A DNA stretch of 32,000 nt, from contig NC_007517.1 in assembly GCF_000012925.1 (NCBI RefSeq), positions 2,400,001 to 2,432,000 on the forward strand. Reading direction: 5' to 3'. The notes under the pieces were generated by a model. It made no database searches, had not been told where the DNA came from, and saw only the letters and a list, made by a program, of their open reading frames with translations. Source of the DNA: Geobacter metallireducens GS-15. GTDB lineage: Bacteria > Desulfobacterota > Desulfuromonadia > Geobacterales > Geobacteraceae. Made by a program: the position numbers and the translations under genes. Positions 2,117 through 30,647 of this stretch are shown one piece after another (within the stretch, counting starts at the first letter, position 1; the number at the start of each line of letters is the position of its first letter).

Positions 2117-4423
2117 ATGAGCGACAATCATAAAGTCATCGGCCGCAGCGTTCCCCGCATCGACGGGCCCGAGAAGGTAACCGGCGCGGCAAAGTATACC
2201 GGGGATCTCAAGTTCCCCAACATGCTCTACGGCAAGATCCTCACCAGCCCCCATGCCCACGCCAGGATCATCTCCATCGACACCTCCGAGGCGGAGAAGC
2301 TGCCGGGGGTGAAGGCGGTCATCACCCACAAGGATGTGCCGGAGCTGAAGTATGGCCTGAGCCCGGCCCGGTGGGACGAAAACATCTTCTGCATCGACAA
2401 GGTGCGCTTCGTCGGCGACAAGGTGGCGGCGGTCGCCTGCGTAGACGAGGATACCTGCTACCGGGCCATGAAGCTCATCAAGGTGGAATACGAAGAGCTC
2501 CCCGCAGTGCTCGATTTCCGTCACGCCATGGACGAGGGGCAGCCTCTGGTCCACGAGGAGTACGAGCGGAACATCAACACCGAGATTCACCAGGAGTTCG
2601 GCGACGTGGCAAAGGCCCTGGCAGAGGCCCACCATGTCCGTACCGACGTCTTCGTGGGCCAGCGGACCTATCAGGCCCCCATCGAGCCCCACTCCGCCAT
2701 CTCCATGTGGGAAGGGGAAAAACTCACCATCTATTCCAGCACCCAGTCCCCCCACTACTTCCAGTACTACATCGCCCGGGAGTTCGGCATGCCCATGGGG
2801 GACGTGCGGATCATCAAGCCATACCTGGGGGGAGGTTTCGGCGGCAAGCTGGAGCCCACGGGCCTGGAGTTTGCCGGAGCGGTGCTGGCGAAGCGGACCG
2901 GCCGGCCGGTGCGGACCTTCTACGACCGGGCCGAAATGTTTGCCCACAACCGGGGGCGCCACGCCCAGTACATGGAGATCACCACCGGGGTGGACAAGGA
3001 CGGCAAGATCCTGGCCGCCAAGGCCAACTTCATCATGGACGGCGGCGCCTACACGAGCCTCGGGATCGCCAGCGCCTACTACGCCGGCGCGCTCCTTCCC
3101 ATGACCTACGAATTCGACAACTACCAGTTCGACATGTTCCGGGTCTACACCAACCTCCCCGCCTGCGGCGCCCAGCGGGGCCACGGCGCTCCCCAGCCCA
3201 AGTACGCCTTCGAGAGCCATCTGGACAACGTGGCCGCCGACCTGGGGATCGACCCCATGGACATCCGGATCCGCAATGCCCGCCGTCCCGACACCGTCAC
3301 CCCCAATGACTTCCGGGTCAACTCCTGCATGATGCGGGAGTGCCTGGAACAGGTCCGGCAGATCTCGGACTGGGACGAGAAAAAGAAAAACCTCCCCCAC
3401 GGACGCGGCATCGGCGTCGCCACCGGCAGCTTCGTCACCGGCGCGGGGTACCCCATCTACCGCACCGACCTCCCCCACGCCGCCGCCTTCATCAAGGTGC
3501 ATGAGGACGGCACCGCAGCCACCCTCTACACCGGCTCTGTCGACATCGGCCAGGGATCTGATACCATTCTCTGTCAGATGGCGGCCGAGGCCATGGGGTA
3601 TCGCTACGAGCAGATGAAGATCGTGGCCGCCGACACGGAGATCACACCGCTCGATTTCGGCGCCTACGCCAGCCGCCAGACCTACATGTCAGGGGCGGCC
3701 GTCAAGCAGGCGGGGGAAGAGGTCAAGAAGCAGCTCCTCGACCTGGCGTCGACCATGCTTTCCCTCCCTGCCGACGACCTTGAGTGCGCGGAAGGGGTTA
3801 TTTTCTCCAAGTCGCGGGAAGGGAAGACACTGACGTTCGAGGAAGTGGCACGGAAACACTTCGTCCTCAAGGGCCCGCTCCTGGGACGCGGCGCCTACAC
3901 GCCGCCGAAACTTGGCGGAAGCTTCAAGGGGGCCGCGGTCGGCACGTCGCCCGCCTACAGCTTCGGCGCCCAGGTGGGAGAGGTTTCCATCGACGAGGAA
4001 ACGGGAGAAATCACCGTGGTGGGCATCTGGGACGTCCACGACTGCGGCAAGGTCATCAACCCGCGGCTGCTCCACGGCCAGGTCCACGGCGCCCTCTACA
4101 TGGGGATGGGGGAATCGGTCTGGGAAGAGGTGCTCTTCGACGACAAGGGACGGATCAAGAATGCGGAACTGGCCAATTACCGGCTCCTCACCGCCGTGGA
4201 CATGCCCCCCATCCAGTCGGAGGTGGTGAACAGCTACGAACCGACCGGGCCGTGGGGGGTGAAGGAAGTGGGCGAAGGGGCCACCAACCCTACCCTGGGG
4301 ATGTTCAGCAATGCCATCTTCGACGCCATGGGGGTCAGGGTGAACAGTCTGCCGCTCACCTACGAGAAGGTCTGGCGGGCACTGAAGGAAAAGCGGGAGC
4401 GGGAAGAGACCAAGGCGGCATAA
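2117..4423 (+). CDS. molybdenum hydroxylase molybdopterin-binding large subunit (aldehyde oxidase/xanthine dehydrogenase family)
   Basis: 768 aa. N-terminal GRSVPRIDGPEKVTGAAKYTGD (a/b hammerhead start). Also GAQRGHGAPQ, GSVDIGQGSDT and a C-terminal GVKEVGEGA (catalytic Glu region). AAGGAGA RBS. Confidence 0.9.
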   Translation: MSDNHKVIGRSVPRIDGPEKVTGAAKYTGDLKFPNMLYGKILTSPHAHARIISIDTSEAEKLPGVKAVITHKDVPELKYGLSPARWDENIFCIDKVRFVGDKVAAVACVDEDTCYRAMKLIKVEYEELPAVLDFRHAMDEGQPLVHEEYERNINTEIHQEFGDVAKALAEAHHVRTDVFVGQRTYQAPIEPHSAISMWEGEKLTIYSSTQSPHYFQYYIAREFGMPMGDVRIIKPYLGGGFGGKLEPTGLEFAGAVLAKRTGRPVRTFYDRAEMFAHNRGRHAQYMEITTGVDKDGKILAAKANFIMDGGAYTSLGIASAYYAGALLPMTYEFDNYQFDMFRVYTNLPACGAQRGHGAPQPKYAFESHLDNVAADLGIDPMDIRIRNARRPDTVTPNDFRVNSCMMRECLEQVRQISDWDEKKKNLPHGRGIGVATGSFVTGAGYPIYRTDLPHAAAFIKVHEDGTAATLYTGSVDIGQGSDTILCQMAAEAMGYRYEQMKIVAADTEITPLDFGAYASRQTYMSGAAVKQAGEEVKKQLLDLASTMLSLPADDLECAEGVIFSKSREGKTLTFEEVARKHFVLKGPLLGRGAYTPPKLGGSFKGAAVGTSPAYSFGAQVGEVSIDEETGEITVVGIWDVHDCGKVINPRLLHGQVHGALYMGMGESVWEEVLFDDKGRIKNAELANYRLLTAVDMPPIQSEVVNSYEPTGPWGVKEVGEGATNPTLGMFSNAIFDAMGVRVNSLPLTYEKVWRALKEKREREETKAA

Positions 4424-4444: not shown

Positions 4445-5206
4445 ATGTGGGACTGGATCGGAAAACTCGATGAACTGCGACGCAGCAACCAGCTGGCGGT
4501 GCTGGTGACGGTGACGAAGAGCAGCGGCTCCACGCCGCGCAAGCACGGGGCAAAGATGATCGTCCTTCCCGACGGGACCTTCTACGGCACCGTGGGGGGC
4601 GGGACTCCCGAGTACTACGCGCTGGAAGATGCCCGCGCCTGCTTCGAGACCATGCAGAGCACCACGAGCAGCGTCCCCCTCAAGCAGCGGGGAGAGTTCC
4701 CCGCCTGCGGCGGCACCATGGAGTTCTATATGGAAGTGATCAACGACAACCCGGTCCTCCACCTCTTCGGCGCCGGGCATATCGGCCAGTCCCTCTGCCA
4801 GATCCTCGACGGAACCCCCTTCCGCATCCATCTCATCGACGAGCGGGAGGAGTGGATTAACGCCCCCAACCTGCCGGGAAGCGTCATCCGCCACCAGCGC
4901 CACTACAGCGACTTCATCGAAAAAGCCATCTGGTGCGACAAGCGGACCTTCGTCGCCATCCAGACCTTCAGCGGCACCCTGGATCAGCAGGTTCTGGAAG
5001 AGGTGCTGCCGAACCCCACCCGCTACGTGGGGATGATCGGCAGCAAAGCCAAGTGGGCAAAGGTCCGGAGCAACCTGGAGGAAAAGGGGCTGGACCTCTC
5101 CGCGGTCCGGTGCCCCATCGGTCACGACAACGGCGGCAACTCGCCCCGGGAAATCGCCATCAGCATCGCCAGCCAGCTTCTTTCCACCTACTACGGGCGG
5201 GAGTGA
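4445..5206 (+). CDS. xdhC: XdhC/CoxI family molybdenum-cofactor insertion accessory protein
   Basis: N-terminal XdhC_CoxI pattern (LAVLVTVTKSSGSTPRKHGAKMIV..DG...GTVGGG). Rossmann-like C-domain (LHLFGAGHIGQSL). Positioned directly after the large subunit. Confidence 0.85.
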   Translation: MWDWIGKLDELRRSNQLAVLVTVTKSSGSTPRKHGAKMIVLPDGTFYGTVGGGTPEYYALEDARACFETMQSTTSSVPLKQRGEFPACGGTMEFYMEVINDNPVLHLFGAGHIGQSLCQILDGTPFRIHLIDEREEWINAPNLPGSVIRHQRHYSDFIEKAIWCDKRTFVAIQTFSGTLDQQVLEEVLPNPTRYVGMIGSKAKWAKVRSNLEEKGLDLSAVRCPIGHDNGGNSPREIAISIASQLLSTYYGRE

Positions 5207-5212
5207 ACCACC

Positions 5213-6019
5213 ATGAAACGGTTGACGGAACGCGTCATCATCATGAAGGGAGCGGGAGAAATGGCTACCGGTGTGGCTTGCCGGCTCCATCGGTCAGGGT
5301 TCCGGCGTATCCTCATGCTGGAAGCCCCTTCCCCTCTCGCGGTCAGACGGGGGGTTTCCTTCTGCGAAGCCATCCATAACGGCAGGAAATCGGTGGAGGG
5401 GATAGAGGCAGTCAGGATCGAAAACGGATCCGCCCTGGCCGATGCCTGGGGAAAGGGGGAAATTCCCCTGCTGGCCGACCCGCAAGGGGATGCCGTGCGC
5501 CGCATGGAACCCGACATCCTCATCGATGCAACGATAGCCAAGCGGAATCTCGGCATTGCCATCACCGACGCGCCGCTCGTGATCGCCCTGGGTCCCGGCT
5601 TCTTTGCCGGCAGGGACTGCCATCTGGTGATTGAAACCAACCGGGGCCACAATCTGGGGCGGCTTATCGCCTGTGGCGAGGCGGAGCCCAACACCGGCAT
5701 CCCCGGCAACATCGGCGGTTATACCAGGGAGCGGGTTCTCCGCGCGCCGGCCGACGGCCACTTCACGACCGAAAAGGTGATCGGCGACCAGGTCAGCAAG
5801 GGGGATGTGGTCGGCATCGTCGGCACCAACACGGTTACGGCTTCCATCGACGGCATCCTGCGGGGGCTGATACGGCCCGGCACCCATGTCACGACCGGCC
5901 TCAAGATCGGCGATATCGATCCCCGTGGGGATACGGCCTATTGCCATACCATTTCGGAGAAGGCCCGCGCCCTTGGCGGGTCGGTGCTGGAAGCGATACT
6001 TACCGTCTACAACCAGTGA
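5213..6019 (+). CDS. yqeB: selenium-dependent molybdenum hydroxylase system protein, YqeB/EF2563 family
   Basis: About 268 aa. The N-terminal IIMKGAGEMATGVACRLHRSGFR..LMLE....AVRR.VSF.EA...G...VEG matches my memory of the EF2563/YqeB C-terminal family. It is followed directly by yqeC. Family assignment is by eye only. Confidence 0.7.
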   Translation: MKRLTERVIIMKGAGEMATGVACRLHRSGFRRILMLEAPSPLAVRRGVSFCEAIHNGRKSVEGIEAVRIENGSALADAWGKGEIPLLADPQGDAVRRMEPDILIDATIAKRNLGIAITDAPLVIALGPGFFAGRDCHLVIETNRGHNLGRLIACGEAEPNTGIPGNIGGYTRERVLRAPADGHFTTEKVIGDQVSKGDVVGIVGTNTVTASIDGILRGLIRPGTHVTTGLKIGDIDPRGDTAYCHTISEKARALGGSVLEAILTVYNQ

Positions 6020-6029
6020 GCCATGGACC

Positions 6030-6812
6030 ATGGAAAATTTCGCCGAAATAGTGGGTATCGGACCTGCGGGAGTGATAAGCATCACCGGCGGAGGCGGCAA
6101 AACGAGCCTCATGTTCCACCTTGCCAGACAACTGGCCTACTCCGGCAAAAGGGTTCTGACAACGACCACCACCAAGATCCTCGCCCCTTCGGTCGAGGAG
6201 TCAAGGACGCTCCTCATCTCCCAGGACCCGCAGGTCATCCTCCGCCATGCCAAAGCCCATCCCGGCCCCGGCGTGCATGTTTCGGCGGCAGCCGGCCATA
6301 TCCCCCATACCGAAAAACTGCAGGGATTTCCCCGTGAAGCGATCCGCACCTTCGAGGATTCGGGAGAGTTCGACTGGGTCGTCGTGGAAGCCGACGGCGC
6401 GGCCCGGAAGCCGCTGAAGGCACCGGCAGCCCATGAGCCGGTCATCCCCGGCAACAGCACCATTGTCGTCGCCCTGGCCGGGCTTGAGGTGCTTGGCAGG
6501 CCCCTGGGGGAGGAGATGGTCTTCCGGTCGGAACTGGCGGGGGAACTGATGCAGATCCCCCAGGGCGAAACCATAACCGTGCCGGCCCTGGCGCGCCTTC
6601 TGGCGCACCCTTCAGGGGGCTTCAAAGGGGCTCCGCCCCAAGCGCGCCGCTTCATCTTCCTCAACAAGGCGGATACGCCCGAACTGCAGGAAAAGGGAGG
6701 GGAAGTCGCGCTCCAGCTCAAGGAGATCGCGCCTTCCGTTGCCGAAGCGGTCATCGTGGGGCAACTGCGGCAGGAGATCACCCTGCACCGGGTCTATCCG
6801 AGGGGAGAGTAA
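6030..6812 (+). CDS. yqeC: selenium cofactor biosynthesis accessory protein YqeC
   Basis: ORF 5886..6812, whose 5' part overlaps yqeB. The ATG at 6030 gives MENFAEIVGIGPAGVISITGGGGKTSLMFHLA, the P-loop-like GGGGKT start typical of YqeC. A later VVVEADGA motif is also present. Confidence 0.75.
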   Translation: MENFAEIVGIGPAGVISITGGGGKTSLMFHLARQLAYSGKRVLTTTTTKILAPSVEESRTLLISQDPQVILRHAKAHPGPGVHVSAAAGHIPHTEKLQGFPREAIRTFEDSGEFDWVVVEADGAARKPLKAPAAHEPVIPGNSTIVVALAGLEVLGRPLGEEMVFRSELAGELMQIPQGETITVPALARLLAHPSGGFKGAPPQARRFIFLNKADTPELQEKGGEVALQLKEIAPSVAEAVIVGQLRQEITLHRVYPRGE

Positions 6813-7420
6813 TGGAGGCCCGTCCCAGGGTTGCCGGGATTGTCCTCGCCGCCGGCAAGAGCACCCGCATGGGGCGGCCAAAGCAGCTCCTCCCCTTCCG
6901 GGGCCGGACCGTTCTGGAATGTGTCGTCGACAATGCCCTTGCCTCACGCCTCCACCGCGTTGTCGTGGTGCTCGGCCACGAGGCGGAGGCCGTCATGCCG
7001 CTTCTTGGGCACCGGTGCGTCACAACCGTCGTAAACCCCTTGTACGGTGAGGGTCAGAGCTCGTCGCTGAAGGCGGGCCTGGGGGCGATGACCGAAGAGA
7101 CCGATGCCGCCCTCTTTCTCCTGGGCGACCAACCCCTCGTCACCGCCGACACCATCAACCTTCTCATCGCCGCCTTCGCCGACTTCCCCTCCCCCATCGT
7201 CATCCCCACCTTTGAAGGCCACAGGGGAAATCCGGTCCTCTTCAGCCGGGAGACCTTCCCCCGCATCGAGGCGTTGAGCGGAGATCGCGGCGCCAGGGGG
7301 CTCTTCCGGGAGTATGGCGATGATATCCGCAGCATCGACGTGCGAACCCCGGCTATCCTCTTCGATCTGGATACGGAGGAGGATTACCTCCGCCTGTTGC
7401 GGGAATTCCCCGCGGTGTAA
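6812..7420 (+). CDS. mocA: MobA/MocA-like molybdenum cofactor nucleotidyltransferase (probable cytidylyltransferase)
   Basis: AGIVLAAGKSTRMGRPKQLLPF, followed by LLGDQPLV, is typical of MocA/YgfJ. The ATG overlaps the yqeC TAA by 1 nt (TAATG). Confidence 0.85.
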   Translation: MEARPRVAGIVLAAGKSTRMGRPKQLLPFRGRTVLECVVDNALASRLHRVVVVLGHEAEAVMPLLGHRCVTTVVNPLYGEGQSSSLKAGLGAMTEETDAALFLLGDQPLVTADTINLLIAAFADFPSPIVIPTFEGHRGNPVLFSRETFPRIEALSGDRGARGLFREYGDDIRSIDVRTPAILFDLDTEEDYLRLLREFPAV

Positions 7421-7475: not shown

Positions 7476-8540
7476 TCAGTCACGACAAAAACCAGCACCG
7501 CCATTGACAGCTCGCACCCCCCTGACACTGCGGTAGCGGTTGATCCCTTCTCCATCGAGCCTCGCCTCCAGCCTGCCGCGGCACGCCAGATAGCGCACGT
7601 GGGAAAGGCATTCCCCCAGCGCCAGCTGCAGATCAAAGTCCCCCAATGAGAAGGAGTAGAGCACCTTCACCAGCTCATAAGCGGACAGTTCACTGCCGGC
7701 ACAGGCATCCACTATCACCTGGGACCGGCGCCGGTGATGACCCCGTAACTCCGCGACCCTTTTCCTCGCCCCGCGGAAGGGGAGCCCGTGCCCCGGGAGC
7801 ACAAGGACGTCGTCGGGGATTGTCGCGAGACGGTCGAGAGATGCAAGCCAATGGCTGAGGGGGTCGTCCTCCGGATTCATGACGCTGACCGAGACGTTGG
7901 TGGAGATGCTCGGCAGGAGTTGGTCCCCGGAGATGAGAATTTTACGCACCTTCGAAAGCAGCAGTGCATGCTCGGGGGAATGTCCCCGGCCGACAATGAC
8001 CTGCCACTCCTCGTCCAGCGGCAGGTGGCTGCGATCCTGCAAACGGACGAAGGAGAGAGGCATGGGGGATATCTCGCGGGCAAAGTCGAACATCACCAGC
8101 GTCTGGGGCAACAGTTCCTGCGGGAAGCCTGCCCGTTGGAAAAATTCGACATGCTGCCACGGCACCTCTTGGGGAAGGTCCGGCCACCCCAGCAGGGTGT
8201 AATACTCCTCGTAGGTCATGAAGAGGGGAACCCGCCAGCGCTCCGTCAGGTAGCCGGCCAGCCCCAGGTGATCCACGTGGTAATGGGTGCAGTACACCCC
8301 CACCACCTTTTCACCGGCAAGGGGCCCGGAAAATACCTCCTCCCATATTCTCCGCGCCTCGGGCGAATCGAGCCCCGTGTCCACAATGAGCCACCCTCCC
8401 GCAACCCGCACCAGGTAGATATTCACGTGGTCAGGGGCGTAGGTCACCGGCATGCGCAGCCATCTGACATCAGGGCCAATCTCCACCAGCTCGCCATCCG
8501 AGTGGGGAGGAGAATACGGAAAGGTCATGGATAGCATCAT
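7476..8540 (-). CDS. MBL-fold metallo-hydrolase with C-terminal helical/winged-helix-like extension
   Basis: HxHxDH motif (THYHVDHLG). Downstream H (GRGHSPEH) and D/H (LISGD, LPGHG) ligands. Its start overlaps the upstream gene stop in an ATGA junction at 8537-8540. Confidence 0.8.
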   Translation of the reverse strand: MMLSMTFPYSPPHSDGELVEIGPDVRWLRMPVTYAPDHVNIYLVRVAGGWLIVDTGLDSPEARRIWEEVFSGPLAGEKVVGVYCTHYHVDHLGLAGYLTERWRVPLFMTYEEYYTLLGWPDLPQEVPWQHVEFFQRAGFPQELLPQTLVMFDFAREISPMPLSFVRLQDRSHLPLDEEWQVIVGRGHSPEHALLLSKVRKILISGDQLLPSISTNVSVSVMNPEDDPLSHWLASLDRLATIPDDVLVLPGHGLPFRGARKRVAELRGHHRRRSQVIVDACAGSELSAYELVKVLYSFSLGDFDLQLALGECLSHVRYLACRGRLEARLDGEGINRYRSVRGVRAVNGGAGFCRD

Positions 8541-10390
8541 TTGAATCGGTACTCCATTCGGTAGGTATCGGTCTCGTCGGAATAGGTCAGAGAATGCCCC
8601 AACCGCCGGTGATAGGCAAGCATCGCCTCGTTGGTCGGCAGGATCTCCGCATAGAAGCCGTCGATCCCCTGGCCGGCGGCGTGGCGCTCCAACTGGCGGA
8701 GGAGGTGATGAGCCAGGCCCAGGCGGCGATACTCCTCATGGACCACCACCGCCGTTTCAGCCATATTGGTGAGGGGGTCGACGGCATAGCGCGCCACCGC
8801 CACGATGGACTCGGCATCATCCTCCTGCCGGAACACCGCCAGCGCCATGCGACTGCTGTAGTCCACGCAGACCTGTTTCGCCGCCTCACGATGGGCCAGT
8901 TGCAGTTTCGGCCCGAAATAGCGATTGTAAATGGTCTCGGGATTATGGCTGTAGAAGAACTCCTGGAGCAAACGCTCATCGGTGGCCTTGAGGGGTCGGA
9001 CCAGCATCATGGTCCCGCCGAACGCCCTTCTCTCTTCAAAATCCTTCGGGTAGCGATTGAGCGCCTGCTGCCATACCTGCTCATCTTCATAGACGTAATG
9101 CTTCTGCTTGACGAACTCCAGCAACTCCCGCCGGTAATCGGGGTGGGCAATGGAGATCAGGGCCAGGGCCCGCTCGCGGATGGTTTTCCCGTGGAGATAG
9201 GCGATACCGTACTCGGACACCACGTAGTGGGCGTCGCCGCGACTGGTGACAACGCCGGCGCCGTCGTCGATCCGGTGGACGATGCGGCTGATCCCCCCGC
9301 CTTTTGCGGTGCTGCGGATGGCGATGATCGGTTTACCTCCCCGGCTCATGGCCGCACCGCGGGCGAAATCCACCTGGCCGCCGATGCCGCTGTAGAAGGT
9401 ATAGCCGATGCTGTCGGCGCAGATCTGCCCGGTCAGGTCCACCTGCAGGGCCGAATTGATGGCCACCACCCGGTCGTTGGCGCAGATCACCCGGGGATCG
9501 TTGACGAAATCCGAGGGATGGAATTCAACCCCCACGTTGCCGTCAACGAAATCGTAAAGCGCGCGGGTGCCGATGACAAAGCTGGTGACCGTCTTGCCGG
9601 GATGAACGCTCTTCAGGCGGTTGGTAATGTTTCCCTCCTCGATAAGGGGGATCAGGGCGTCGCTGAACATCTCGGTGTGGATGCCGAGATCCCGCTTGTC
9701 GGCGATGAACCGGAGGACCGTGCTGGGAATGGTGCCGATCCCCATCTGGAGGCAGCTGCCGTTTTCCACCAGCCGCGAGATGTGGTAGCCGATCTGCAGC
9801 TCCACCTCATCCGGTTCCTTGGCAGCGGATTCAAGGATCGGGTAGTCCGTTTCCACCAGGCAATCGAAGCGGCTCAGGTGAATGTGGGTGTCGCCGCAGG
9901 TGCGCGGCATGCGGGGGTTCACCTCGGCAATCACCAGCCGGGCCCGGTCCAGCGCCGCCCGCTGGATATCCACATTGACCCCGAGGCTGCAGTAACCGTG
10001 GCTGTCAGGGGGGGACACCTGCAACAGCGCCGCATGATTCCCCCTCCGGCCGCGGCGGATCAGGGCCGGGATCTCGCTCAGGAAGATCGGCGTGTAGTCC
10101 GCCCGCCCGTCGCAGACCGCCTGGCGGATATCCTCGCTGATGAAGAACGAGTTGTGGCGAAGATGACCGGTATTCCGCTCGGTAATGTAATCGGCAGAAC
10201 CGAAGGCGAGTAGCTGGATCAGCTCGATGTCATGGAGCCTGCCGGCGTTTCGGTTCAGGGCGGCCACCAGCTGCAACGGCGCGGCGCAGCCCGACCCGAC
10301 AAACACGCGCCAACCGGATTGAATCCGTGCCACCGCCTCATCAGCCGTTGTCAGCTTCTGTCTGTACAGCTCAACAAGTTGGTTGTTCAT
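8537..10390 (-). CDS. acetyl-CoA hydrolase/transferase family domain fused to a C-terminal GNAT N-acetyltransferase domain
   Basis: 617 aa. The first ~430 aa resemble 4-hydroxybutyrate CoA-transferase/acetyl-CoA hydrolase (GSGCAAP, GIHTEMFSD, FYSGIGGQVDF). The last ~160 aa have the GNAT acetyl-CoA-binding pattern (VVVHEEYRRLGLAHHLLRQLERHAAGQGI). Confidence 0.8.
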   Translation of the reverse strand: MNNQLVELYRQKLTTADEAVARIQSGWRVFVGSGCAAPLQLVAALNRNAGRLHDIELIQLLAFGSADYITERNTGHLRHNSFFISEDIRQAVCDGRADYTPIFLSEIPALIRRGRRGNHAALLQVSPPDSHGYCSLGVNVDIQRAALDRARLVIAEVNPRMPRTCGDTHIHLSRFDCLVETDYPILESAAKEPDEVELQIGYHISRLVENGSCLQMGIGTIPSTVLRFIADKRDLGIHTEMFSDALIPLIEEGNITNRLKSVHPGKTVTSFVIGTRALYDFVDGNVGVEFHPSDFVNDPRVICANDRVVAINSALQVDLTGQICADSIGYTFYSGIGGQVDFARGAAMSRGGKPIIAIRSTAKGGGISRIVHRIDDGAGVVTSRGDAHYVVSEYGIAYLHGKTIRERALALISIAHPDYRRELLEFVKQKHYVYEDEQVWQQALNRYPKDFEERRAFGGTMMLVRPLKATDERLLQEFFYSHNPETIYNRYFGPKLQLAHREAAKQVCVDYSSRMALAVFRQEDDAESIVAVARYAVDPLTNMAETAVVVHEEYRRLGLAHHLLRQLERHAAGQGIDGFYAEILPTNEAMLAYHRRLGHSLTYSDETDTYRMEYRFK

Positions 10391-10649
10391 CCTCTCCCCG
10401 TTTGAAAACGTCCCTTTCAGTAGTACCGCAACCAGACCACCCCGCCTCGGGACGTGCTGCCGGAACCAATCGGATGCCCGTACACGTTCTCACATTTCAT
10501 CAATTTTTTACATCACTCATCAGAACATTACACCCAATGAGCCAATATCACAAATTACATAACGCCGTTTTTAGTTACAAAACCTATTTTTTGCATATTT
10601 TATCCAATATTTCAGCATGTTGTAAATTTGACGGTTCGTATCATTTCAC

Positions 10650-10666
10650 TTGGTCCAGTATCTGCA
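10650..10666 (+). promoter_or_regulatory. candidate sigma-54 (-24/-12) promoter, TTGGTCCAGTATCTGCA
   Basis: GG at 10652-10653 and GC at 10664-10665 have the canonical 12-nt register of TGGCAC-N5-TTGCW. The -12 element ends 52 nt upstream of the ligase ATG (10719). A sigma-54-dependent activator is encoded 3 kb away. Confidence 0.45.
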
Positions 10667-10667
10667 A

Positions 10668-10681
10668 AACACTGTTTATCA
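10668..10681. promoter_or_regulatory. shared cis-element AACACTGTTTATCA (palindromic core AACA-C-TGTT)
   Basis: The 10-mer AACACTGTTT is identical to 17849-17858. The flanks also match except for one extra T (AACACTGTTTTATCA at 17849-17863). It lies immediately downstream of the candidate -12 element. Confidence 0.45.
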
Positions 10682-10718
10682 AATTAACACCTTAACCACA
10701 AGCTGCCGGAGGTCCACA

Positions 10719-12290
10719 ATGCCCTACAATCTCAACCTGCCCGAAACCTTCAACGCCGCCGATTACTTCATCGACCGCAACATCCGCGAGGGGAGAGGCG
10801 ACAAGCTCGCCGTTCTCTGCGAGGAGCGCTCCCTCACCTACCGGCAGCTGCAGGAAGGGGTCAACCGCTTCGGAAACGCCCTGAAATCCCTGGATGTGCG
10901 CATGGAAGAGCGCGTCGCCCTCCTTCTGCTGGATACGGAGGTCTACCCCCAGGCATTTTTCGGAGCCATCAAGATCGGGGCGGTTCCCATCTGCCTCAAC
11001 ACCATGAACCGTCCCCAGGATTTCCAGTTCTACCTCAACGACAGCCGGGCGCGGGTCCTGGTTGTCGATGCGCTGCTCCTTGACCAGATCGAGCCCATTC
11101 GCCGCAACCTGCAGTTCCTGAAGCATGTCATCGTGGCCAACGGCTCCGCCCCGGCAGGCGATCTGAGCCTGGCGGAACTGTGCGCCCCCCAGCCCACGGA
11201 GCTTGAAACCGCCCCCACCTGCCGCGACGACGCCTGCTTCTGGCTCTACAGCTCCGGCTCCACCGGCTCACCCAAGGGGACGGTCCATCTCCAGCACGAC
11301 ATGGTCTATTCGGCCAAGACCTACGGGGCAAAAGTGCTCGACATCAAGGAAAACGACGTATTTTTCTCGGCCGCGAAACTGTTCTTTGCCTACGGCCTGG
11401 GGAACGGCATCTACTTCCCTTTCTGTGTCGGGGCAACCGCCGTGTACCTGCCGCTGCGGCCGACCCCGGCCAATGTTTATGAAACGGTGCGCCGCCACCG
11501 TCCGACCCTGTTTTTCGGCGTTCCCACCCTCTACGGCCAGATGCTTGAGGAAGAAGGGAGCATGAACGGCGTCAGGCTGTGCGTCTCCGCGGGCGAGGCC
11601 CTGCCGGCAGCCTACATCCACCGCTGGAAAGCACGCTTCCAGCTGGACATTCTCGACGGGATCGGCTCCACCGAGATGGCCCACATCTTCATCTCCAACA
11701 GGCCCGGCGAAATCGTCGCCGGCAGCTCCGGGAGGGTCGTCCCCGGCTACGAGGCCCGCATCGTGGATGAAAACATGCACGATCTCCCGGCCGGCGAGAT
11801 CGGCACGCTCCTGGTCAAGGGTGACAGCGCCACGGCCCTCTACTGGAACAAGCATGAGAAAACCAGGCAGACCATCATGGGGCACTGGATAAATACCGGC
11901 GACAAATATGTCTGCGATGAAAACGGCTATTTCCACTGCGCCGGCCGCTCCGACGACATGCTCAAGGTGGGGGGGATCTGGGTGTCGCCCAACGAGGTTG
12001 AGTCTTGCCTGATCGGACACCCCGCCATCCTGGAGTGTGCCGTCATCGGCGCCCCTGACGAGGACAACCTGATCAAGCCCATGGCCTTCGTGGTCCTCAA
12101 TTCCCAGCATCAGCCATCGCCGGAGATGGAGAACGAGTTGAAGGAGTATGTGAAGACCACCCTGGCGATGTACAAGTACCCGCGCTGGATACGGTTCATC
12201 GATGAACTCCCCAAGACCGCCACCGGCAAGATCAAACGCTTCGAACTGCGCACCATGATCCAGAAGGAAGAGTTGCAGCACGTGGCCTGA
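10719..12290 (+). CDS. bamY: benzoate-CoA ligase family protein (benzoate or hydroxybenzoate:CoA ligase, AMP-forming)
   Basis: ORF 10650..12290. The ATG at 10719 follows GGAGG (10708-10712). The N-terminus MPYNLNLPETFNAADYFIDRNIREGRGDKLAV is characteristic of benzoate-CoA ligases. AMP-binding motifs YSSGSTGSPKG, TGD and PKTATGKIKR are present. The symbol comes from remembered synteny with the G. metallireducens benzoate cluster. Confidence 0.85.
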   Translation: MPYNLNLPETFNAADYFIDRNIREGRGDKLAVLCEERSLTYRQLQEGVNRFGNALKSLDVRMEERVALLLLDTEVYPQAFFGAIKIGAVPICLNTMNRPQDFQFYLNDSRARVLVVDALLLDQIEPIRRNLQFLKHVIVANGSAPAGDLSLAELCAPQPTELETAPTCRDDACFWLYSSGSTGSPKGTVHLQHDMVYSAKTYGAKVLDIKENDVFFSAAKLFFAYGLGNGIYFPFCVGATAVYLPLRPTPANVYETVRRHRPTLFFGVPTLYGQMLEEEGSMNGVRLCVSAGEALPAAYIHRWKARFQLDILDGIGSTEMAHIFISNRPGEIVAGSSGRVVPGYEARIVDENMHDLPAGEIGTLLVKGDSATALYWNKHEKTRQTIMGHWINTGDKYVCDENGYFHCAGRSDDMLKVGGIWVSPNEVESCLIGHPAILECAVIGAPDEDNLIKPMAFVVLNSQHQPSPEMENELKEYVKTTLAMYKYPRWIRFIDELPKTATGKIKRFELRTMIQKEELQHVA

Positions 12291-12348
12291 ATCAGGGGCC
12301 TGATCGTCACGAACACACTCGATGCACTACCTGCCAAGGAGGTACGGG

Positions 12349-13635
12349 ATGGAGAAATACGCAGTCAGAAGAATGTTCAAGGGTCAACTGGCAACAGGTT
12401 TCGCCGCTCTGGCACTGAGTTTCATCGTCGCGGCTTTTCTGTGGCCTGCCTGGTCCCTCACGGTAAAGGCGCTGTACGGAATCCTCGCAGGCCCCGGCCT
12501 CAGCGCCGCGGAACCCAAGGAAGCCGGCCAGCTGATCGGTGCCGTGGCCAGGGGAACCTTCTTCTGGACGGCCATCAACAGCTGGATCTGGCTGACTCTG
12601 GTTATGGGGAATTACGGCAAGACCTCCTTGACCGAAAAACAGCCCTGGGCCGGCATCTACTATACCATCGTGGGGTGGCTGGTGGGGGCGGGAGCCTTTC
12701 TGGCGCTCATCAGCTTCATGGGGATCTGGTGGAAACCGTTCAGCCTGGCGATCATGTTCGTCCCCCGGACCGCCGCCGATGTAGCCATGGCCTTTGAGGC
12801 CTGGGAAGCATCCAACTTCTATGCCCTGGCGGTGATTATCGCCCAGATCCCGCTGGTTTCCCTGCTGCAGAAATGGCCCTTTGCCGGAAAGGCCGAAAAG
12901 CCCGTCGAGAGCTTCGGCGTGATTGCCATGGGGATCGCGGTGACCTTCATCGTCTGGATGGCGATGATCGTTCCGAGCTGGATGAAGCTTTCCCTGGGCG
13001 GAGAGCAGATCGTCGCCCCACCCTTCGGCAACTGGCCGGCATTCGCCGCATTCTGCCAGGCGTACGTTATCTTTGCCATCATGCCGGTGGAAGGGGGAGA
13101 GCTTTACCCCATGAAGCTGTTCACCCGGAAGCAGCCGCTGATGGGGATTATCGGCTTTGCCATCGCGCTTGCCGCCGGCTTTGTCATGCCGCCGATCATA
13201 AAGGGGATCATCGCCCCCCTCAATCTGGTAAGCGGCCCGCCCCTGGATGCGGTGGCGGCATCCCTGGAGCTGTCGGTGATCGTCTTCATGCTGGCCTGGC
13301 ACCACCTGTTCGAGGATTACCCGAGCGCCGCGCTGGTTCCCAATACCGCCGCCAGGGTATGCTGCAGGATAGCGATATGGTCCATCGGCGGCACGGTCTA
13401 TGGGGTCATCTGGCTGAAAACCTTCAAGCTGATCCCCTACGGCGCCAACGACCTCGGCATGGGCGTTCCGCCGCTGGGGATCCTGGCGGGGCAGTTCGCC
13501 CTGCTGATGACCCTCCTCTTCCTGAACACCTTTTTCGATAAATGGCCCCTGGTGCGCAAAGTGCCCCTGAGCGTACCCGAGGACATCCCCCTCCCCGCTG
13601 ACGAGCAGGCAGGGTTTGAAGCCATGGCCAAGTAG
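12349..13635 (+). CDS. polytopic integral membrane protein of unrecognised family (about 10-11 predicted TM helices)
   Basis: ORF 12322..13635. The ATG at 12349 lies 7 nt after AAGGAGG. The protein is Trp/Phe/Gly-rich with long hydrophobic stretches. It starts 58 nt after the ligase stop and is followed by an intrinsic terminator. Confidence 0.75.
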   Translation: MEKYAVRRMFKGQLATGFAALALSFIVAAFLWPAWSLTVKALYGILAGPGLSAAEPKEAGQLIGAVARGTFFWTAINSWIWLTLVMGNYGKTSLTEKQPWAGIYYTIVGWLVGAGAFLALISFMGIWWKPFSLAIMFVPRTAADVAMAFEAWEASNFYALAVIIAQIPLVSLLQKWPFAGKAEKPVESFGVIAMGIAVTFIVWMAMIVPSWMKLSLGGEQIVAPPFGNWPAFAAFCQAYVIFAIMPVEGGELYPMKLFTRKQPLMGIIGFAIALAAGFVMPPIIKGIIAPLNLVSGPPLDAVAASLELSVIVFMLAWHHLFEDYPSAALVPNTAARVCCRIAIWSIGGTVYGVIWLKTFKLIPYGANDLGMGVPPLGILAGQFALLMTLLFLNTFFDKWPLVRKVPLSVPEDIPLPADEQAGFEAMAK

Positions 13636-17867: not shown

Positions 17868-19211
17868 CTAGAAGAAGTAATAGGCGGCGAAGCGCCCGAT
17901 GTTGGCGGTACCGGAGGTCGCCAGGCCCGCCAGGTTGCCGGTGCCGTTGGTGACGTTGCCGTACTGGGTGTTGATGTTCTGGTATTCGACGGCAAACCGG
18001 AGCGCAGCATTCAGATCGTAGGTAACGTTGGCATAGATGGCCGAGTTGGATTTCTCGAAGTTATCGATGCCTCTGTAGCTTGCGTAGTTATAGGCGTTCC
18101 GCCGGGCATAACCGGCCGTAATCCCCAGGTCCTGAGTCGGGTAGAAAATAAGCTGGCTGTATATGCCGTACCCCTTGGCGGGCTTCTTGTCGCCGGCAGC
18201 TCCAACCACGGTTCCCGCCGTAGCGCCAATGGTATACATGTTGGCGGCCATGTAGGCCTGCCCCTCAAAGGAGGCGGTCATGGCGCGGTTTTTACCATCC
18301 TTTGACGGCAGGAGCGGCACGAAGGTATAGAAGCCGTATCCCCAGCTATCCACCGAATCTTTGTTACCGGCAACGTCCTGGTTGCCGTAGAGGCCGAAGA
18401 AGCCCGCTGTCAGCGAATTCATGGACATGCCGTAGTAGCCCGGCGCAACCCCGAGAACCTTGCTGATGAGCATTGCCTGGCCGGCCACGTTGACCTTGGC
18501 CCCCCATGAGTCACCGCTTGCCCCTTGGAGATTGGAATCCTGAACCGGATTCTGCACCCCGAGGACCAGCCGCAGGGCATTCTTGTCATTGAGGTTCAGC
18601 CGATGGGTTACCCTGATCTGGGGCACCCGCGGGTTGTTCGGGGCGCCGGTCATGGCCGCCTGGCCGAAATCGACGGTGGAGGCGGTGGCCGGACCGAAGA
18701 TGTCATAAGCCTGCCCCAGCACCAGTTGGGTATTGGCCCAGTCCAGCGAGGCATTGGCGAGGCGGAGCCGCATGGTGGCGGTCTCGTTGGAAGCGCCGCC
18801 CCCGCCGTAGAAGTCCGTTTCGATGATGGCATTGGTCTTGGCGCCAAGGAAGGTGGGGCCGCCAACCTTCAGCCAGATCCGGGACTGCCGGGCGGTGAAG
18901 ATGGACTGATCCTCCTGGCCGGCGGGGGAACTACTCTTGGGGATGCCCCTCTGAAGCGTGCCCAGGGCGCCGTTGGACCCCAGGTTGACCGAGTTGTACG
19001 CGTAATCGAGCTTGACGTAGCCGCCGATGCTCAGGTTGAATTTGCTGGTGACCGGCGAGGCCATCTTGCCGTAGATGCCGGGGGCCACTTCACAGTTTGG
19101 CTGAAAATCACAGTTGTAGACCGGCGCGACGGTCTGGGGCAACTCTTCGGCCATGGCCGGAGCGGCCAGAAGCAAAGCAGAGATTCCAACCGTAAGTCCC
19201 TTGTTCTTCAT
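17868..19211 (-). CDS. outer-membrane porin (beta-barrel)
   Basis: ORF 17868..19268. The ATG at 19211 follows GGAGGAAAC. Sec signal MKNKGLTVGISALLLAAPAMA. Alternating beta-strand pattern rich in Y/G/N. Terminal aromatic signature ...AAYYFF. Confidence 0.8.
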   Translation of the reverse strand: MKNKGLTVGISALLLAAPAMAEELPQTVAPVYNCDFQPNCEVAPGIYGKMASPVTSKFNLSIGGYVKLDYAYNSVNLGSNGALGTLQRGIPKSSSPAGQEDQSIFTARQSRIWLKVGGPTFLGAKTNAIIETDFYGGGGASNETATMRLRLANASLDWANTQLVLGQAYDIFGPATASTVDFGQAAMTGAPNNPRVPQIRVTHRLNLNDKNALRLVLGVQNPVQDSNLQGASGDSWGAKVNVAGQAMLISKVLGVAPGYYGMSMNSLTAGFFGLYGNQDVAGNKDSVDSWGYGFYTFVPLLPSKDGKNRAMTASFEGQAYMAANMYTIGATAGTVVGAAGDKKPAKGYGIYSQLIFYPTQDLGITAGYARRNAYNYASYRGIDNFEKSNSAIYANVTYDLNAALRFAVEYQNINTQYGNVTNGTGNLAGLATSGTANIGRFAAYYFF

Positions 19212-19307
19212 GTTTCCTCCACAAAAAGAGATGATCTGCAAACCTTCACTTTCCCGTTGCACTCCCATGACACATGCGACTTCTGCGCTTGCTCCCTGCT
19301 CCCCCTT

Positions 19308-20207
19308 TCAGTAATCGCTTCCCACCAGATCGGACGTCCTGGCCCCCTCCCCTTCGCGGACGATCCCGTAGGCGCCGTTGGGACCCACAAAACCGGTGAC
19401 CTCAAGGGTCCCGACCTTGCTTCCCGGGTCAAACCCCAGCCCTTTGATCCCCTTGCCGCCACGGTAGATCCGCAACCGTTGACCGATTACGACGCCGCTT
19501 TCCCTCCCGGCGTTGATGTAGACCTTCTCCCCTTCCACCGCCGCAATGCCGCAGAGCCACGGGATATGCCGCGCAACGCCGCGGACCTTATCGGCAACGG
19601 CATCGAGGGACGCGGCACTCTCTCCTTGGCTTGAGACAGGAACCTCGATCCGGCGCAGGAGGATTCCCCCCATGCCGTCATACATCTCCGCCACGAGGAG
19701 GCTCCCGCCCCCTTCTCCCTTGAGGGAGCCGATGAACACGACTGCATTGAACTCCCGGTTCCGGTTGAGGCTCTGGACGTAGGCACCGCGCTCCTCCACG
19801 GATGCGGGCACGGAAAGGGCTCCCTCCGGCCGCGGCTCGCCGACAAGGGCAAAGCCGGCTCCTCTCAGCTTCTCGCCGAGCCCCGCCGCCAGCTCATTTC
19901 CCCCCGCCTGCACAACGGCGATGCGCAACCGGGGCGAGACCGCTGCTGCAACCTGGGAAGCCGGGGCGGGAGCCCCCTTCCCGACCACCTCCTCGTACCC
20001 CTTTTTCACCAGTTGGCTGCCGCGGGGAATGCCGCTCTCCACGTACCGCCGGGGAACCCACATGGTGGGCGAGGCGTTGGGGGACATGGTGTAGGCCGGG
20101 TTGTCCACCTCAACGTACTCTTCCGACGGTCCGGTGGCGGTCCGGGGACCGGCGCAGGCCGTGACGGTAAGCAGGGCCAACAAGGCTACATACCTGAGAG
20201 TTCCCAT
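19308..20207 (-). CDS. lipoprotein of unknown function
   Basis: ORF 19308..20249. The ATG at 20207 lies 6 nt after AAGGAG. Lipobox LLTVTAC. I recognise no catalytic motifs. Confidence 0.7.
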   Translation of the reverse strand: MGTLRYVALLALLTVTACAGPRTATGPSEEYVEVDNPAYTMSPNASPTMWVPRRYVESGIPRGSQLVKKGYEEVVGKGAPAPASQVAAAVSPRLRIAVVQAGGNELAAGLGEKLRGAGFALVGEPRPEGALSVPASVEERGAYVQSLNRNREFNAVVFIGSLKGEGGGSLLVAEMYDGMGGILLRRIEVPVSSQGESAASLDAVADKVRGVARHIPWLCGIAAVEGEKVYINAGRESGVVIGQRLRIYRGGKGIKGLGFDPGSKVGTLEVTGFVGPNGAYGIVREGEGARTSDLVGSDY

Positions 20208-26313: not shown

Positions 26314-26365
26314 GATGAAATCTCCTTTCCCTGGAATTTCCGTTGTTTTCGCGAACACCGTCGAG

Positions 26366-26396
26366 GTAACGAAAACCCGCCCCGAAGGGCGGGTTT
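26366..26396 (-). terminator. rho-independent terminator between the two multicopper oxidase genes
   Basis: On the - strand: AAACCCGCCC-UUCG-GGGCGGGUUU (perfect 10-bp stem with a UUCG tetraloop) running into UUUUCGUU. It lies 34 nt after the stop at 26431. Confidence 0.65.
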
Positions 26397-26430
26397 CGTG
26401 CATCGCGACACAGTACTTGTTCGTCTTGCT

Positions 26431-28557: not shown

Positions 28558-28695
28558 GGTTGACTCCTTTTTCGCTGACAGTATGTGCCGCACTTCCATA
28601 AAATCCCCGTCCCTGGGGAGCCGGCAATTTTCTGCCGGTGCCGTCATGGCATTGATCATGGACGGTCTCATCTCGTATTCCGTTGCCGGGGCACC

Positions 28696-30327: not shown

Positions 30328-30647
30328 GGGGTTCTCTCCTGGCAGCGCCTGGCGTGGCAAGATTGTGCTGGTATAGAGTCTATCGATAAATCGGGAATTG
30401 GCCTTGATGTAAATTGCTGAATATTTGTGAAATATTGCTATAGCGGGTTGCATCATTTTTTTGTATCAGCGCAATATTGACTCATTACACATAGTTGAAC
30501 TCGTTTTAATACAACTTTGATTCAGATCCAGATACTAAATTGACATTTCTAGTAAGCAATTATTTTTGTGTAATAAATCTGCAACACAAAGACAGTTGGA
30601 TTGTTTTTGGTATCAAAGAATTTTATGCATAGGATTTAGTTGTGGAT

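Follow-up and report, generated by a model that had tools for sequence, protein, structure and literature searches.

A CoA-transferase::GNAT fusion encoded head-to-head with bamY in Geobacter metallireducens as a candidate Pat-like switch for AMP-forming acyl-CoA ligases

The gene Gmet_2142 lies in a known aromatic-degradation island of Geobacter metallireducens GS-15, within a stretch of 32,000 nucleotides (G000:C1:2400001-2432000 of a genome of 4,011,182 bp; hereafter the window, to which positions refer unless stated otherwise), and encodes a fusion of a family I coenzyme A (CoA)-transferase domain with a C-terminal GNAT domain. We read its product, with confidence only a little above even, as a Pat-like lysine acyltransferase that would serve as an off-switch for acyl-CoA ligases, with the benzoate-CoA ligase BamY as its preferred substrate. 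A first-pass annotation of this DNA had suggested a Pat analogue linked to AMP-forming ligases, a suggestion supported here by the relationship of the GNAT domain to the Pat clade, by the pairing of the gene with bamY, and by the acetyl-CoA synthetase (acs) and histone deacetylase (HDAC)-type genes that neighbour related fusions in other lineages. Judged on homology and gene neighbourhood, the fusion is probably a lysine acyltransferase of Pat-like kind whose targets are AMP-forming ligases and whose N-terminal domain is new and apparently active.

The locus comprises the following features:

8537..10390, minus strand: Gmet_2142, CoA-transferase::GNAT fusion gene, 617 amino acids (open reading frame, Pfam and NCBIfam domains, annotation coordinates)
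7476..8540, minus strand: Gmet_2141, metallo-beta-lactamase (MBL)-fold hydrolase gene, 354 amino acids (Lactamase_B match, annotation)
8268..8285, minus strand: HYHVDH metal-binding motif of the MBL protein, residues 86-91
10391..10718, no strand: intergenic region separating the divergent fusion and bamY genes, 328 nt (bamY start ATG at 10719)
10719..12290, plus strand: bamY (Gmet_2143), benzoate-CoA ligase, proposed substrate (TIGR02262, 656 bits; annotation)
12210..12230, plus strand: PKTATGK (PX4GK), BamY residues 498-504, proposed acylation site
12228-12230, plus strand: codon of the catalytic Lys504 of BamY

The coordinates of the three genes agree with Gmet_2141, Gmet_2142 and Gmet_2143 in the supplement of Butler 2007, where Gmet_2141 appears as 'Beta-lactamase-like' (genome positions 2407476-2408540) and Gmet_2143 as bamY (2410719-2412290). 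The first-pass description of the locus held at each point. Indeed, Pfam recovered the 617-amino-acid protein joining an acetyl-CoA hydrolase/transferase (PF02550, PF13336) to a C-terminal GNAT domain (PF00583), and the ATGA overlap between the fusion and MBL genes was found on the minus strand, where the TGA stop of the former and the ATG start of the latter share positions 8540-8537 (...TTCAAATGATGCTA...). The downstream product is an MBL-fold hydrolase (Lactamase_B PF00753, 101.6 bits, E 7e-29) with the HYHVDH motif, as described. The ligase, scoring well above the cut-off of 375 of the benzoate-CoA ligase family, carries the described P-X4-G-K with its catalytic lysine, and its gene diverges from the fusion gene across 328 nt when the start is placed at its true position, the ATG at 10719 with GGAGG ahead of it; the listed reading frame runs back to a TTG at 10650. 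No RNA family of Rfam was matched between 7300 and 10800 at E values up to 1.

The relationship to Pat is clearest in the C-terminal half of the fusion protein, in which these features were located:

8540..9013, minus strand: Pat-type GNAT domain, residues 460-617 (PDB 9isq/9it0; NCBIfam NF058543)
8756..8758, minus strand: codon of Glu545, opposite chain residue 809 of 9it0 in the alignment
8711..8728, minus strand: GNAT motif A RRLGLA, residues 555-560, acyl-CoA pyrophosphate-binding loop

The Pfam match to GNAT covers residues 521-598 (E 1.1e-11). The top PDB relatives are 9isq and 9it0, named 'Protein acetyltransferase' (877 and 886 amino acids, E 4e-18), which we take to be enterobacterial Pat/PatZ. 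They are followed by 4nxy/4u5y (the GNAT of Streptomyces lividans PatA), 3f8k (Sulfolobus Pat) and 4ava (Mycobacterium tuberculosis Pat), the last matching the GNAT domain alone only weakly (E 0.0017). The best NCBIfam GNAT model is that of mycobacterial Pat (NF058543, E 1e-11), matched at a score below its full-length cut-off. In the alignment, MAETAVVV of the fusion stands against DAEFAVLV of 9it0, with Glu545 opposite residue 809, presumably the proposed catalytic Glu809 of Pat. Conservation was followed in 94 fusion proteins aligned together with 52 rows classed as stand-alone CoA-transferases, some of which are truncated open reading frames of fusions. The position of Glu545 is occupied by Glu in 85 of the 94 fusions; Q/R555 and G558 (93/94) as well as G/A560 of motif A are conserved, and so is Asn587, present in Gmet_2142. 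On these grounds we assign the GNAT domain to the Pat clade. When the GNAT domain alone was searched against 1.8 billion representative proteins, 1100 clusters were returned at E 1e-10 or better, in which related domains lie C-terminally in proteins of about 600-660 amino acids (the fusion architecture) and of about 780-970 amino acids (a length fitting type I Pat), or N-terminally in proteins of 859-907 amino acids (a length fitting type II). Gmet_2142 encodes the only Pat-like GNAT found in the G. metallireducens genome.

The pairing with bamY was followed in an even sample of 201 Geobacterales genomes, with orthologues accepted at identities of at least 76% for bamY and at least 74% for the full-length fusion. 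Orthologues of bamY occur in 22 genomes and of the full-length fusion in 21; both are found in 21 genomes and neither in 178, and one incomplete genome (G196) holds a fusion fragment with the start of bamY alongside. Wherever both genes lie on a single contig, in 20 genomes of six genera, their arrangement is head-to-head; among the further Geobacterales loci measured, the spacer spans 197-549 nt. Since the outer neighbours vary, the conserved unit is the fusion-bamY pair and not the island: the fusion is followed by bamQ in one genus, by nothing recognisable in others and by the MBL gene in G. metallireducens, and bamY by either a bamT-like gene or bamX. Thus, the co-occurrence of fusion and ligase across genomes that the first-pass annotation had put forward as a check is clear, and in Geobacterales it takes the form of a conserved gene pair.

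Two candidate regulatory elements were located in the spacer of the window:

10651..10666, plus strand: sigma-54 -24/-12-like element TGGTCCAGTATCTGCA, 68 nt before the bamY start
10597..10626, minus strand: sigma-70-like promoter match TTTACA-18-TAAAAT facing the fusion gene (consensus match only)

Of 24 Geobacterales spacers (L105-L125 and L005-L007), 15, that of the window included, have a TGG-N9-TGCA element at 62-95 nt upstream of bamY, which fits control of bamY by the neighbouring sigma-54 activator bamW. In the benzoate-versus-acetate comparison of Butler 2007, bamY (4.2-fold) and the succinyl-CoA:benzoate CoA-transferase gene bct (7.3-fold) are among the changed genes and Gmet_2142 is absent from the list. 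Because it falls outside that list, unlike bamY and bct, Gmet_2142 fits a regulator better than a catabolic enzyme.

Geobacterales also hold a second clade of fusions, at 44-47% identity, which clusters with an HDAC gene and a 556-amino-acid ligase that bears LPMTATGK. The cluster, whose fusion genes lie at the positions below, further contains a sigma-54 regulator, a bamT-like gene, a stand-alone CoA-transferase and acyl-CoA dehydrogenase-like genes (recognised by their motifs):

L153, 4566-6389
L154, 9323-11173
L155, 9432-11270
L156, 10731-12566

The association with AMP-forming ligases extends far beyond this order. More than 8000 candidates shared sequence words with the fusion, the best 120 all being fusions, and NCBI names the product 'bifunctional acetyl-CoA hydrolase/transferase family protein/GNAT family N-acetyltransferase'. 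Full-length fusions were found in Geobacterales, Planctomycetota, Kiritimatiellota, Verrucomicrobiota, Elusimicrobiota, Armatimonadota and Krumholzibacteriota among bacteria, and in Thorarchaeota, Promethearchaeota, Thermoplasmata and Methanomassiliicoccaceae among archaea. Neighbours within 10 kb were counted at 65 fusion loci from many phyla and at 19 loci with a stand-alone CoA-transferase:

AMP-forming ligase: fusion 24/65; stand-alone 1/19
HDAC-family gene: fusion 11/65 (9 lie 20-110 bp downstream); stand-alone 0/19
ADP-forming acetyl-CoA synthetase: fusion 19/65 (mostly directly upstream); stand-alone 1/19
Major facilitator superfamily (MFS) transporter: fusion 17/65; stand-alone 0/19
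CBS-domain gene: fusion 5/65; stand-alone 0/19

The enrichment of ligases near fusions corresponds to a Fisher p of 0.005, computed over lineages that are not independent. Outside Geobacterales the ligases are mostly true acetyl-CoA synthetases (Acs; TIGR02188, 919-1002 bits, cut-off 725) ending in PKTRSGKIMRR, the classical target of Pat, and in Planctomycetota and other members of the Planctomycetota-Verrucomicrobiota-Chlamydiota (PVC) group, in Asgard archaea and in Methanomassiliicoccaceae the neighbours include true Acs, class-I HDAC-type deacetylases and the ADP-forming acetyl-CoA synthetase. The HDAC neighbours are presumably of the same type as AcuC. A role as acetylpolyamine amidohydrolases, which would point to small-molecule chemistry, is disfavoured for them; the solved structures nearest to them are of class I enzymes (HDAC8, HDAC1/2 and HDLP), and this favours protein deacetylation. 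Fusion, HDAC gene and acs occur together at L025, L027, L029, L037, L055 and L059. Layouts differ between lineages (head-to-head; with an MFS gene between; convergent and adjacent in Methanomassiliicoccaceae; or as an operon of ADP-forming synthetase, fusion and HDAC genes with acs a few kb away), which favours repeated association over a single inherited cluster. As to the fusion itself, a tree of the CoA-transferase domain, built after truncated fusion open reading frames had been removed from the stand-alone class, needs one change of the fusion label, on a weakly supported branch, so that a single origin is possible.

Further observations were made at these loci. In PVC bacteria, including Planctomycetota, a gene of about 700 codons for the ADP-forming acetyl-CoA synthetase, which is of the same family as the large domain of Pat, lies on the strand of the fusion and about 20-160 bp upstream of it, at the following loci:

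L025, L027-L030, L032, L035, L037, L038, L043, L044, L049, L050, L054, L055, L059, L061

This arrangement hints at either a split, three-part Pat-like unit or a control of futile cycling. Two fusion genes a few kb apart were seen in some Phycisphaerae and Thorarchaeota (L021, at 10001 and 14140; L046; L053). On the metagenomic contig L163, the ligase beside the fusion is called as two open reading frames of 309 and 200 amino acids (18549-20109), reflecting a frameshift or an assembly error.

The N-terminal half of the fusion protein contains the following features:

9104..10366, minus strand: family I CoA-transferase domain of the 4-hydroxybutyrate CoA-transferase type, residues 9-429 (PDB 9vag)
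9671..9673, minus strand: codon of Glu240, predicted catalytic glutamate (HTEM), aligned to residue 238 of 3gk7
9356..9382, minus strand: GGQVDFARG loop, residues 337-345, conserved CoA-transferase active-site motif
9014..9103, minus strand: linker, residues 430-459 (predicted local distance difference test, pLDDT, below 50 at 435-443 in the AlphaFold2 model)

AcetylCoA_hydro (PF02550) matches residues 18-182 (E 1.9e-23, 84 bits, cut-off 24) and AcetylCoA_hyd_C (PF13336) residues 274-425 (E 5.6e-63, 212 bits, cut-off 23.7); PDB 9vag matches residues 9-426 (E 7.5e-139), followed by 3eh7, 2oas and 3gk7. Pfam and PDB searches gave no CoA_binding, Succ_CoA_lig or ATP-grasp match in this domain. 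Glu240 aligns with Glu238 of Clostridium aminobutyricum AbfT (3gk7), reportedly the catalytic glutamate that forms the enzyme-CoA thioester (Macieira 2009). It is invariant in the fusions (94/94) and present in 51 of the 52 rows classed as stand-alone, some of these being truncated fusions, while G337, G338, D341, F342, R344 and G345 of the loop are kept in 93-94 of the 94 fusions. With Glu240 invariant and the GGQxDFxRG loop nearly so, the domain is under the constraint of a working enzyme; with the full catalytic set kept, the N-terminal half may itself be catalytic and not just sense passively. Glu249 of RipA is the analogous catalytic glutamate. All NCBIfam equivalog cut-offs were missed (the butyryl-CoA:acetate model gave 305 bits against a cut-off of 675), and thus no substrate specificity can be assigned to the domain.

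Such conservation would also be expected if Gmet_2142 were mainly a metabolic CoA-transferase, activating benzoate or acetate from acetyl-CoA or succinyl-CoA without ATP, as was suggested by Aklujkar et al. for its Geobacter bemidjiensis orthologue Gbem_1430, whose adjacency to bamY they noted in proposing a CoA-transferase route for benzoate. In that case, the GNAT domain would be an accessory. The essentially invariant active site, shared with the rows classed as stand-alone, is in line with this explanation, as are the 42% identity of the domain to the characterised succinyl-CoA:benzoate CoA-transferase Bct (Gmet_2054), the position next to bamY and the growth of Geobacter bemidjiensis on benzoate despite a stop codon in its bamY. 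Nevertheless, Bct is a more distant relative of the domain than are 4-hydroxybutyrate-type transferases from other phyla (51-58% identity), and Gmet_2142 is not listed as benzoate-induced, whereas bct is. Moreover, a purely metabolic role leaves unexplained both a Pat-type GNAT domain with intact catalytic residues, retained in all 94 fusions, and the class-I HDAC genes directly downstream at nine loci, so that we consider this explanation unlikely.

Under the favoured reading as a ligase switch, the C-terminal GNAT domain would take an acyl group, probably acetyl, from acyl-CoA and transfer it to Lys504 in the PX4GK motif of BamY. Acylation of this lysine would block the adenylation half-reaction, and ATP-dependent activation of benzoate would stop until an HDAC-type or sirtuin deacetylase, each encoded by one gene elsewhere in the genome (C1:1955478 and C1:439555, respectively), restored BamY activity. 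The N-terminal CoA-transferase would replace the inactive, NDP-forming acyl-CoA-synthetase-like domain of Pat, and it would probably bind and react with acyl-CoA, tying the output of the GNAT domain to the state of the acyl-CoA, free acid and CoA pools. A plausible rationale is the avoidance of waste or of CoA depletion; G. metallireducens also has an ATP-independent means of activating benzoate in Bct. In PVC bacteria, where the fusion is apparently co-transcribed with the ADP-forming acetyl-CoA synthetase, a futile cycle would arise between this synthetase and Acs. Benzoate-CoA ligase BadA is reportedly among the Rhodopseudomonas palustris ligases controlled in the manner envisaged for BamY. 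As regards precedents, Pat enzymes inactivate Acs through acetylation of its catalytic lysine (2024 review), the R. palustris acyl-CoA synthetases of anaerobic benzoate catabolism are, by the title of Crosby 2010, regulated by reversible lysine acetylation, and the lysine of the homologous TATGK motif is acetylated in vivo in benzoate-CoA ligases of Syntrophus aciditrophicus (PMC8942843).

A bolder extension, which we advance tentatively and think rather less probable than otherwise, is that CoA-transferase::GNAT proteins constitute a sixth and very widespread class of prokaryotic lysine acyltransferases, present in many bacterial phyla, Asgard archaea and Thermoplasmatota, in which a live CoA-transferase acts as an 'enzyme-as-sensor'. 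In one form, the occupancy of the Glu240-CoA intermediate, set by the ratio of acyl-CoA to free acid, would gate the GNAT domain; in another, the transferase would make the acyl donor in place, and the ligase would be acylated, perhaps benzoylated, in proportion to its own product. Either form, if true, would keep ATP-dependent ligases from cycling futilely against routes that need no ATP or yield it, such as Bct and the ADP-forming synthetase.

Comparison with known systems places the fusion close to, but outside, the described types. Its GNAT domain falls in the same clade as those of type I and type II Pat (Salmonella enterica Pat, Escherichia coli PatZ/YfiQ, R. palustris Pat, S. lividans PatA), the Glu at the position of residue 809 of 9it0 and motif A are likewise present, and like Pat the fusion is linked to PX4GK-bearing AMP-forming ligases, including Acs and benzoate-CoA ligase. 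The partner domain, however, is NDP-forming acyl-CoA-synthetase-like and of 700-900 amino acids in Pat, whereas that of the fusion is a family I CoA-transferase of about 430 amino acids; the large domain of Pat is described as inactive (2024 review), and the partner domain of the fusion keeps its catalytic residues. Because its N-terminal domain is not NDP-forming acyl-CoA-synthetase-like, the fusion is not a member of type I or II as defined in that review. The type III enzymes (M. tuberculosis Pat with cAMP, Myxococcus xanthus Kat with NADP, and actinobacterial ACT-GNAT proteins) share with it the order of an N-terminal regulatory module, then a GNAT domain at the C-terminus, although their modules are ligand-binding domains and that of the fusion is a whole enzyme. 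The first 430 residues of the fusion share fold and active site with AbfT/Cat2 and Bct (Gmet_2054), from which it differs in its C-terminal Pat-type GNAT domain and its absence from the benzoate-induced list. In gene order, a parallel is the acsA-acuABC locus of Bacillus subtilis (AcuA, GNAT; AcuB, CBS; AcuC, class-I HDAC-type), where the acetyltransferase gene is likewise divergent from the ligase gene; in other phyla, the fusion near acs is followed by an HDAC-type deacetylase gene or flanked by a CBS-domain gene. Nevertheless, AcuA is a single-domain GNAT, unlike the fusion, and the window has no cluster of writer, eraser and substrate of the acuABC kind: no CBS gene is adjacent, and the genes for the HDAC and the sirtuin lie elsewhere in the genome.

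Several points weigh against the ligase switch and against BamY as its target. The reading rests wholly on homology and gene neighbourhood. Within 10 kb, no ligase was found at 41 of the 65 fusion loci, and in PVC bacteria the closest partner is the ADP-forming acetyl-CoA synthetase and not Acs. One genome (G040) has bamY with only a 46% paralogue in place of a fusion orthologue. In G. bemidjiensis, bamY (G063:C1:1649554-1651104, L140) carries one in-frame TAG beside an intact fusion; it was published as a pseudogene with a stop codon in an organism that nevertheless grows on benzoate (Aklujkar 2010), and the fusion kept next to it must thus be useful beyond the control of BamY. BadL, a GNAT of benzoate clusters, acetylates small molecules and not proteins, and the fully conserved CoA-transferase site suggests a real metabolic activity that a switch does not require. 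Finally, in the AlphaFold2 model both domains fold (mean pLDDT 80.5), but with a predicted template modelling score (pTM) of 0.65 their mutual orientation is uncertain; given this score and the low confidence of the linker (435-443) and of the active-site loops (317-338 and 365-384), the model allows no conclusion on domain docking.

Some of these points would be accommodated if Gmet_2142 acylated proteins in general, or small molecules, at the acetyl-CoA node and bore no particular relation to BamY, the adjacency of bamY reflecting shared regulation only. Its targets could then be many proteins, the ADP-forming synthetase, a CoA-transferase, or a metabolite as with BadL. The loci devoid of a ligase, the ADP-forming synthetase gene, which at most of its 19 loci is the one immediately upstream of the fusion, the CBS-domain genes flanking other fusions and the BadL precedent in benzoate clusters are compatible with such a role, and as the sole Pat-like GNAT of the genome the protein may serve several PX4GK ligases. 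Against it stand the constancy of the head-to-head arrangement with bamY while other neighbours change, the joint gain and loss of the two genes (bamY is found alone in a single genome, and the one fragment lies beside a bamY start) and the nature of the GNAT domain, which is Pat-like and not BadL-like. We therefore regard a general acyltransferase as an improbable account, and keep BamY as the preferred substrate of a Pat-like switch.

A tempting over-reading of the locus concerns the MBL hydrolase, which the first-pass annotation had made part of the module. This was not supported: the gene is a recent neighbour of the fusion, which it adjoins in G. metallireducens and Geobacter grbiciae alone, in both with the 4-bp overlap, and elsewhere its partner is a sigma-54 activator. 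Among 31 relatives it is present in only two, the genome of the window itself and G011, where it lies beside MocA and 4-hydroxybenzoyl-CoA reductase genes and a sigma-54 regulator in a genome with neither fusion nor bamY. Its candidacy as a conserved partner was rejected, homologues being absent from the flanks of 84 other fusion or CoA-transferase loci and from the immediate flanks of the other fusion-carrying Geobacterales genomes. At L163-L165, the MBL orthologue is divergent from a PAS-sigma54 activator gene and stands beside a CoA-transferase of 523-526 amino acids, followed by a transporter gene (acetate-permease-like SSF+DUF485, or DctP) and beta-oxidation genes; at L163, the fusion and its ligase are 5 kb from it. 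The orthologues were located at L159 (9146-10276), L163 (9886-10947), L164 (10001-11095) and L165 (10001-11083), all divergent from a sigma-54 activator. The closest solved relatives of the protein (5u8o, 5i0p and 6ao1, E about 1e-63) have no known function and the match to PqsE is distant (E 2e-8, 36 bits), leaving a thioesterase role possible. Gmet_2141 is thus a downstream gene specific to this lineage and stands outside the conserved unit. The complete module first envisaged, with the MBL protein acting with the fusion as an aryl-CoA thioesterase that relieves CoA depletion, can draw on the co-translation implied by the ATGA overlap, on the presence of PqsE, a 2-aminobenzoylacetyl-CoA thioesterase, among the nearest characterised relatives and on the real hazard of CoA-pool depletion by benzoate activation, suggested for E. 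coli (PMC10818641), but in view of this distribution it is very unlikely.

The surroundings of the pair in the window are those of an aromatic-degradation island, with 4-hydroxybenzoyl-CoA reductase and molybdenum-cofactor maturation genes upstream and bamX, the sigma-54 two-component pair bamW/bamV, bamU, dch (bamR), had (bamQ) and electron-transfer flavoprotein (ETF) genes downstream. The gene for the 4-hydroxybenzoyl-CoA reductase alpha subunit (2117-4423) is followed at 4445-7420 by XdhC, YqeB, YqeC and MocA genes, YqeB and YqeC being markers of selenium-dependent molybdenum hydroxylase maturation; as the listed YqeB and YqeC reading frames overlap by 134 nt, the start of YqeC is probably further downstream. 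The bamX gene (12322-13635, plus strand) encodes a hydrophobic protein of 437 amino acids that matched no Pfam or NCBIfam model; it is induced 6.3-fold on benzoate (Butler 2007) and is a possible benzoate transporter or membrane partner. Just past the bam genes, at 24766-30456 on the minus strand, lie two multicopper-oxidase-like genes and a multihaem MtrC/MtrF-like cytochrome gene.

The gene itself was already annotated and its adjacency to bamY had been remarked in one paper; what is new is the proposal of a Pat-like switch with a new and probably active partner domain, as judged from its conserved catalytic residues. In agreement with the first-pass annotation, the searchable literature contained no characterised member of this architecture and no paper describing CoA-transferase::GNAT proteins as protein acetyltransferases, searches by domain names, NCBI product name and locus tags returning only Aklujkar 2010. 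Likewise, none of the five acetyltransferase types recognised in the 2024 review has a CoA-transferase domain. No bacterial acetylation switch is better understood than the reversible lysine acetylation of AMP-forming acyl-CoA synthetases, whose known writers are Pat, AcuA and a few sensor-GNAT fusions. The hypothesis is directly testable in G. metallireducens, since the organism is amenable to genetics and BamY has reportedly been purified and characterised. The known writers would be joined, through the fusion family, by one whose N-terminal module is a different and apparently active metabolic enzyme, and this in anaerobes among which the fusion is common (PVC bacteria, Geobacterales, Asgard archaea and relatives of methanogens), groups to which current classifications give no obvious regulator of Acs. 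For G. metallireducens, the ATP cost of benzoate activation that such a switch would govern matters in the energy-limited anaerobic degradation of aromatic compounds.

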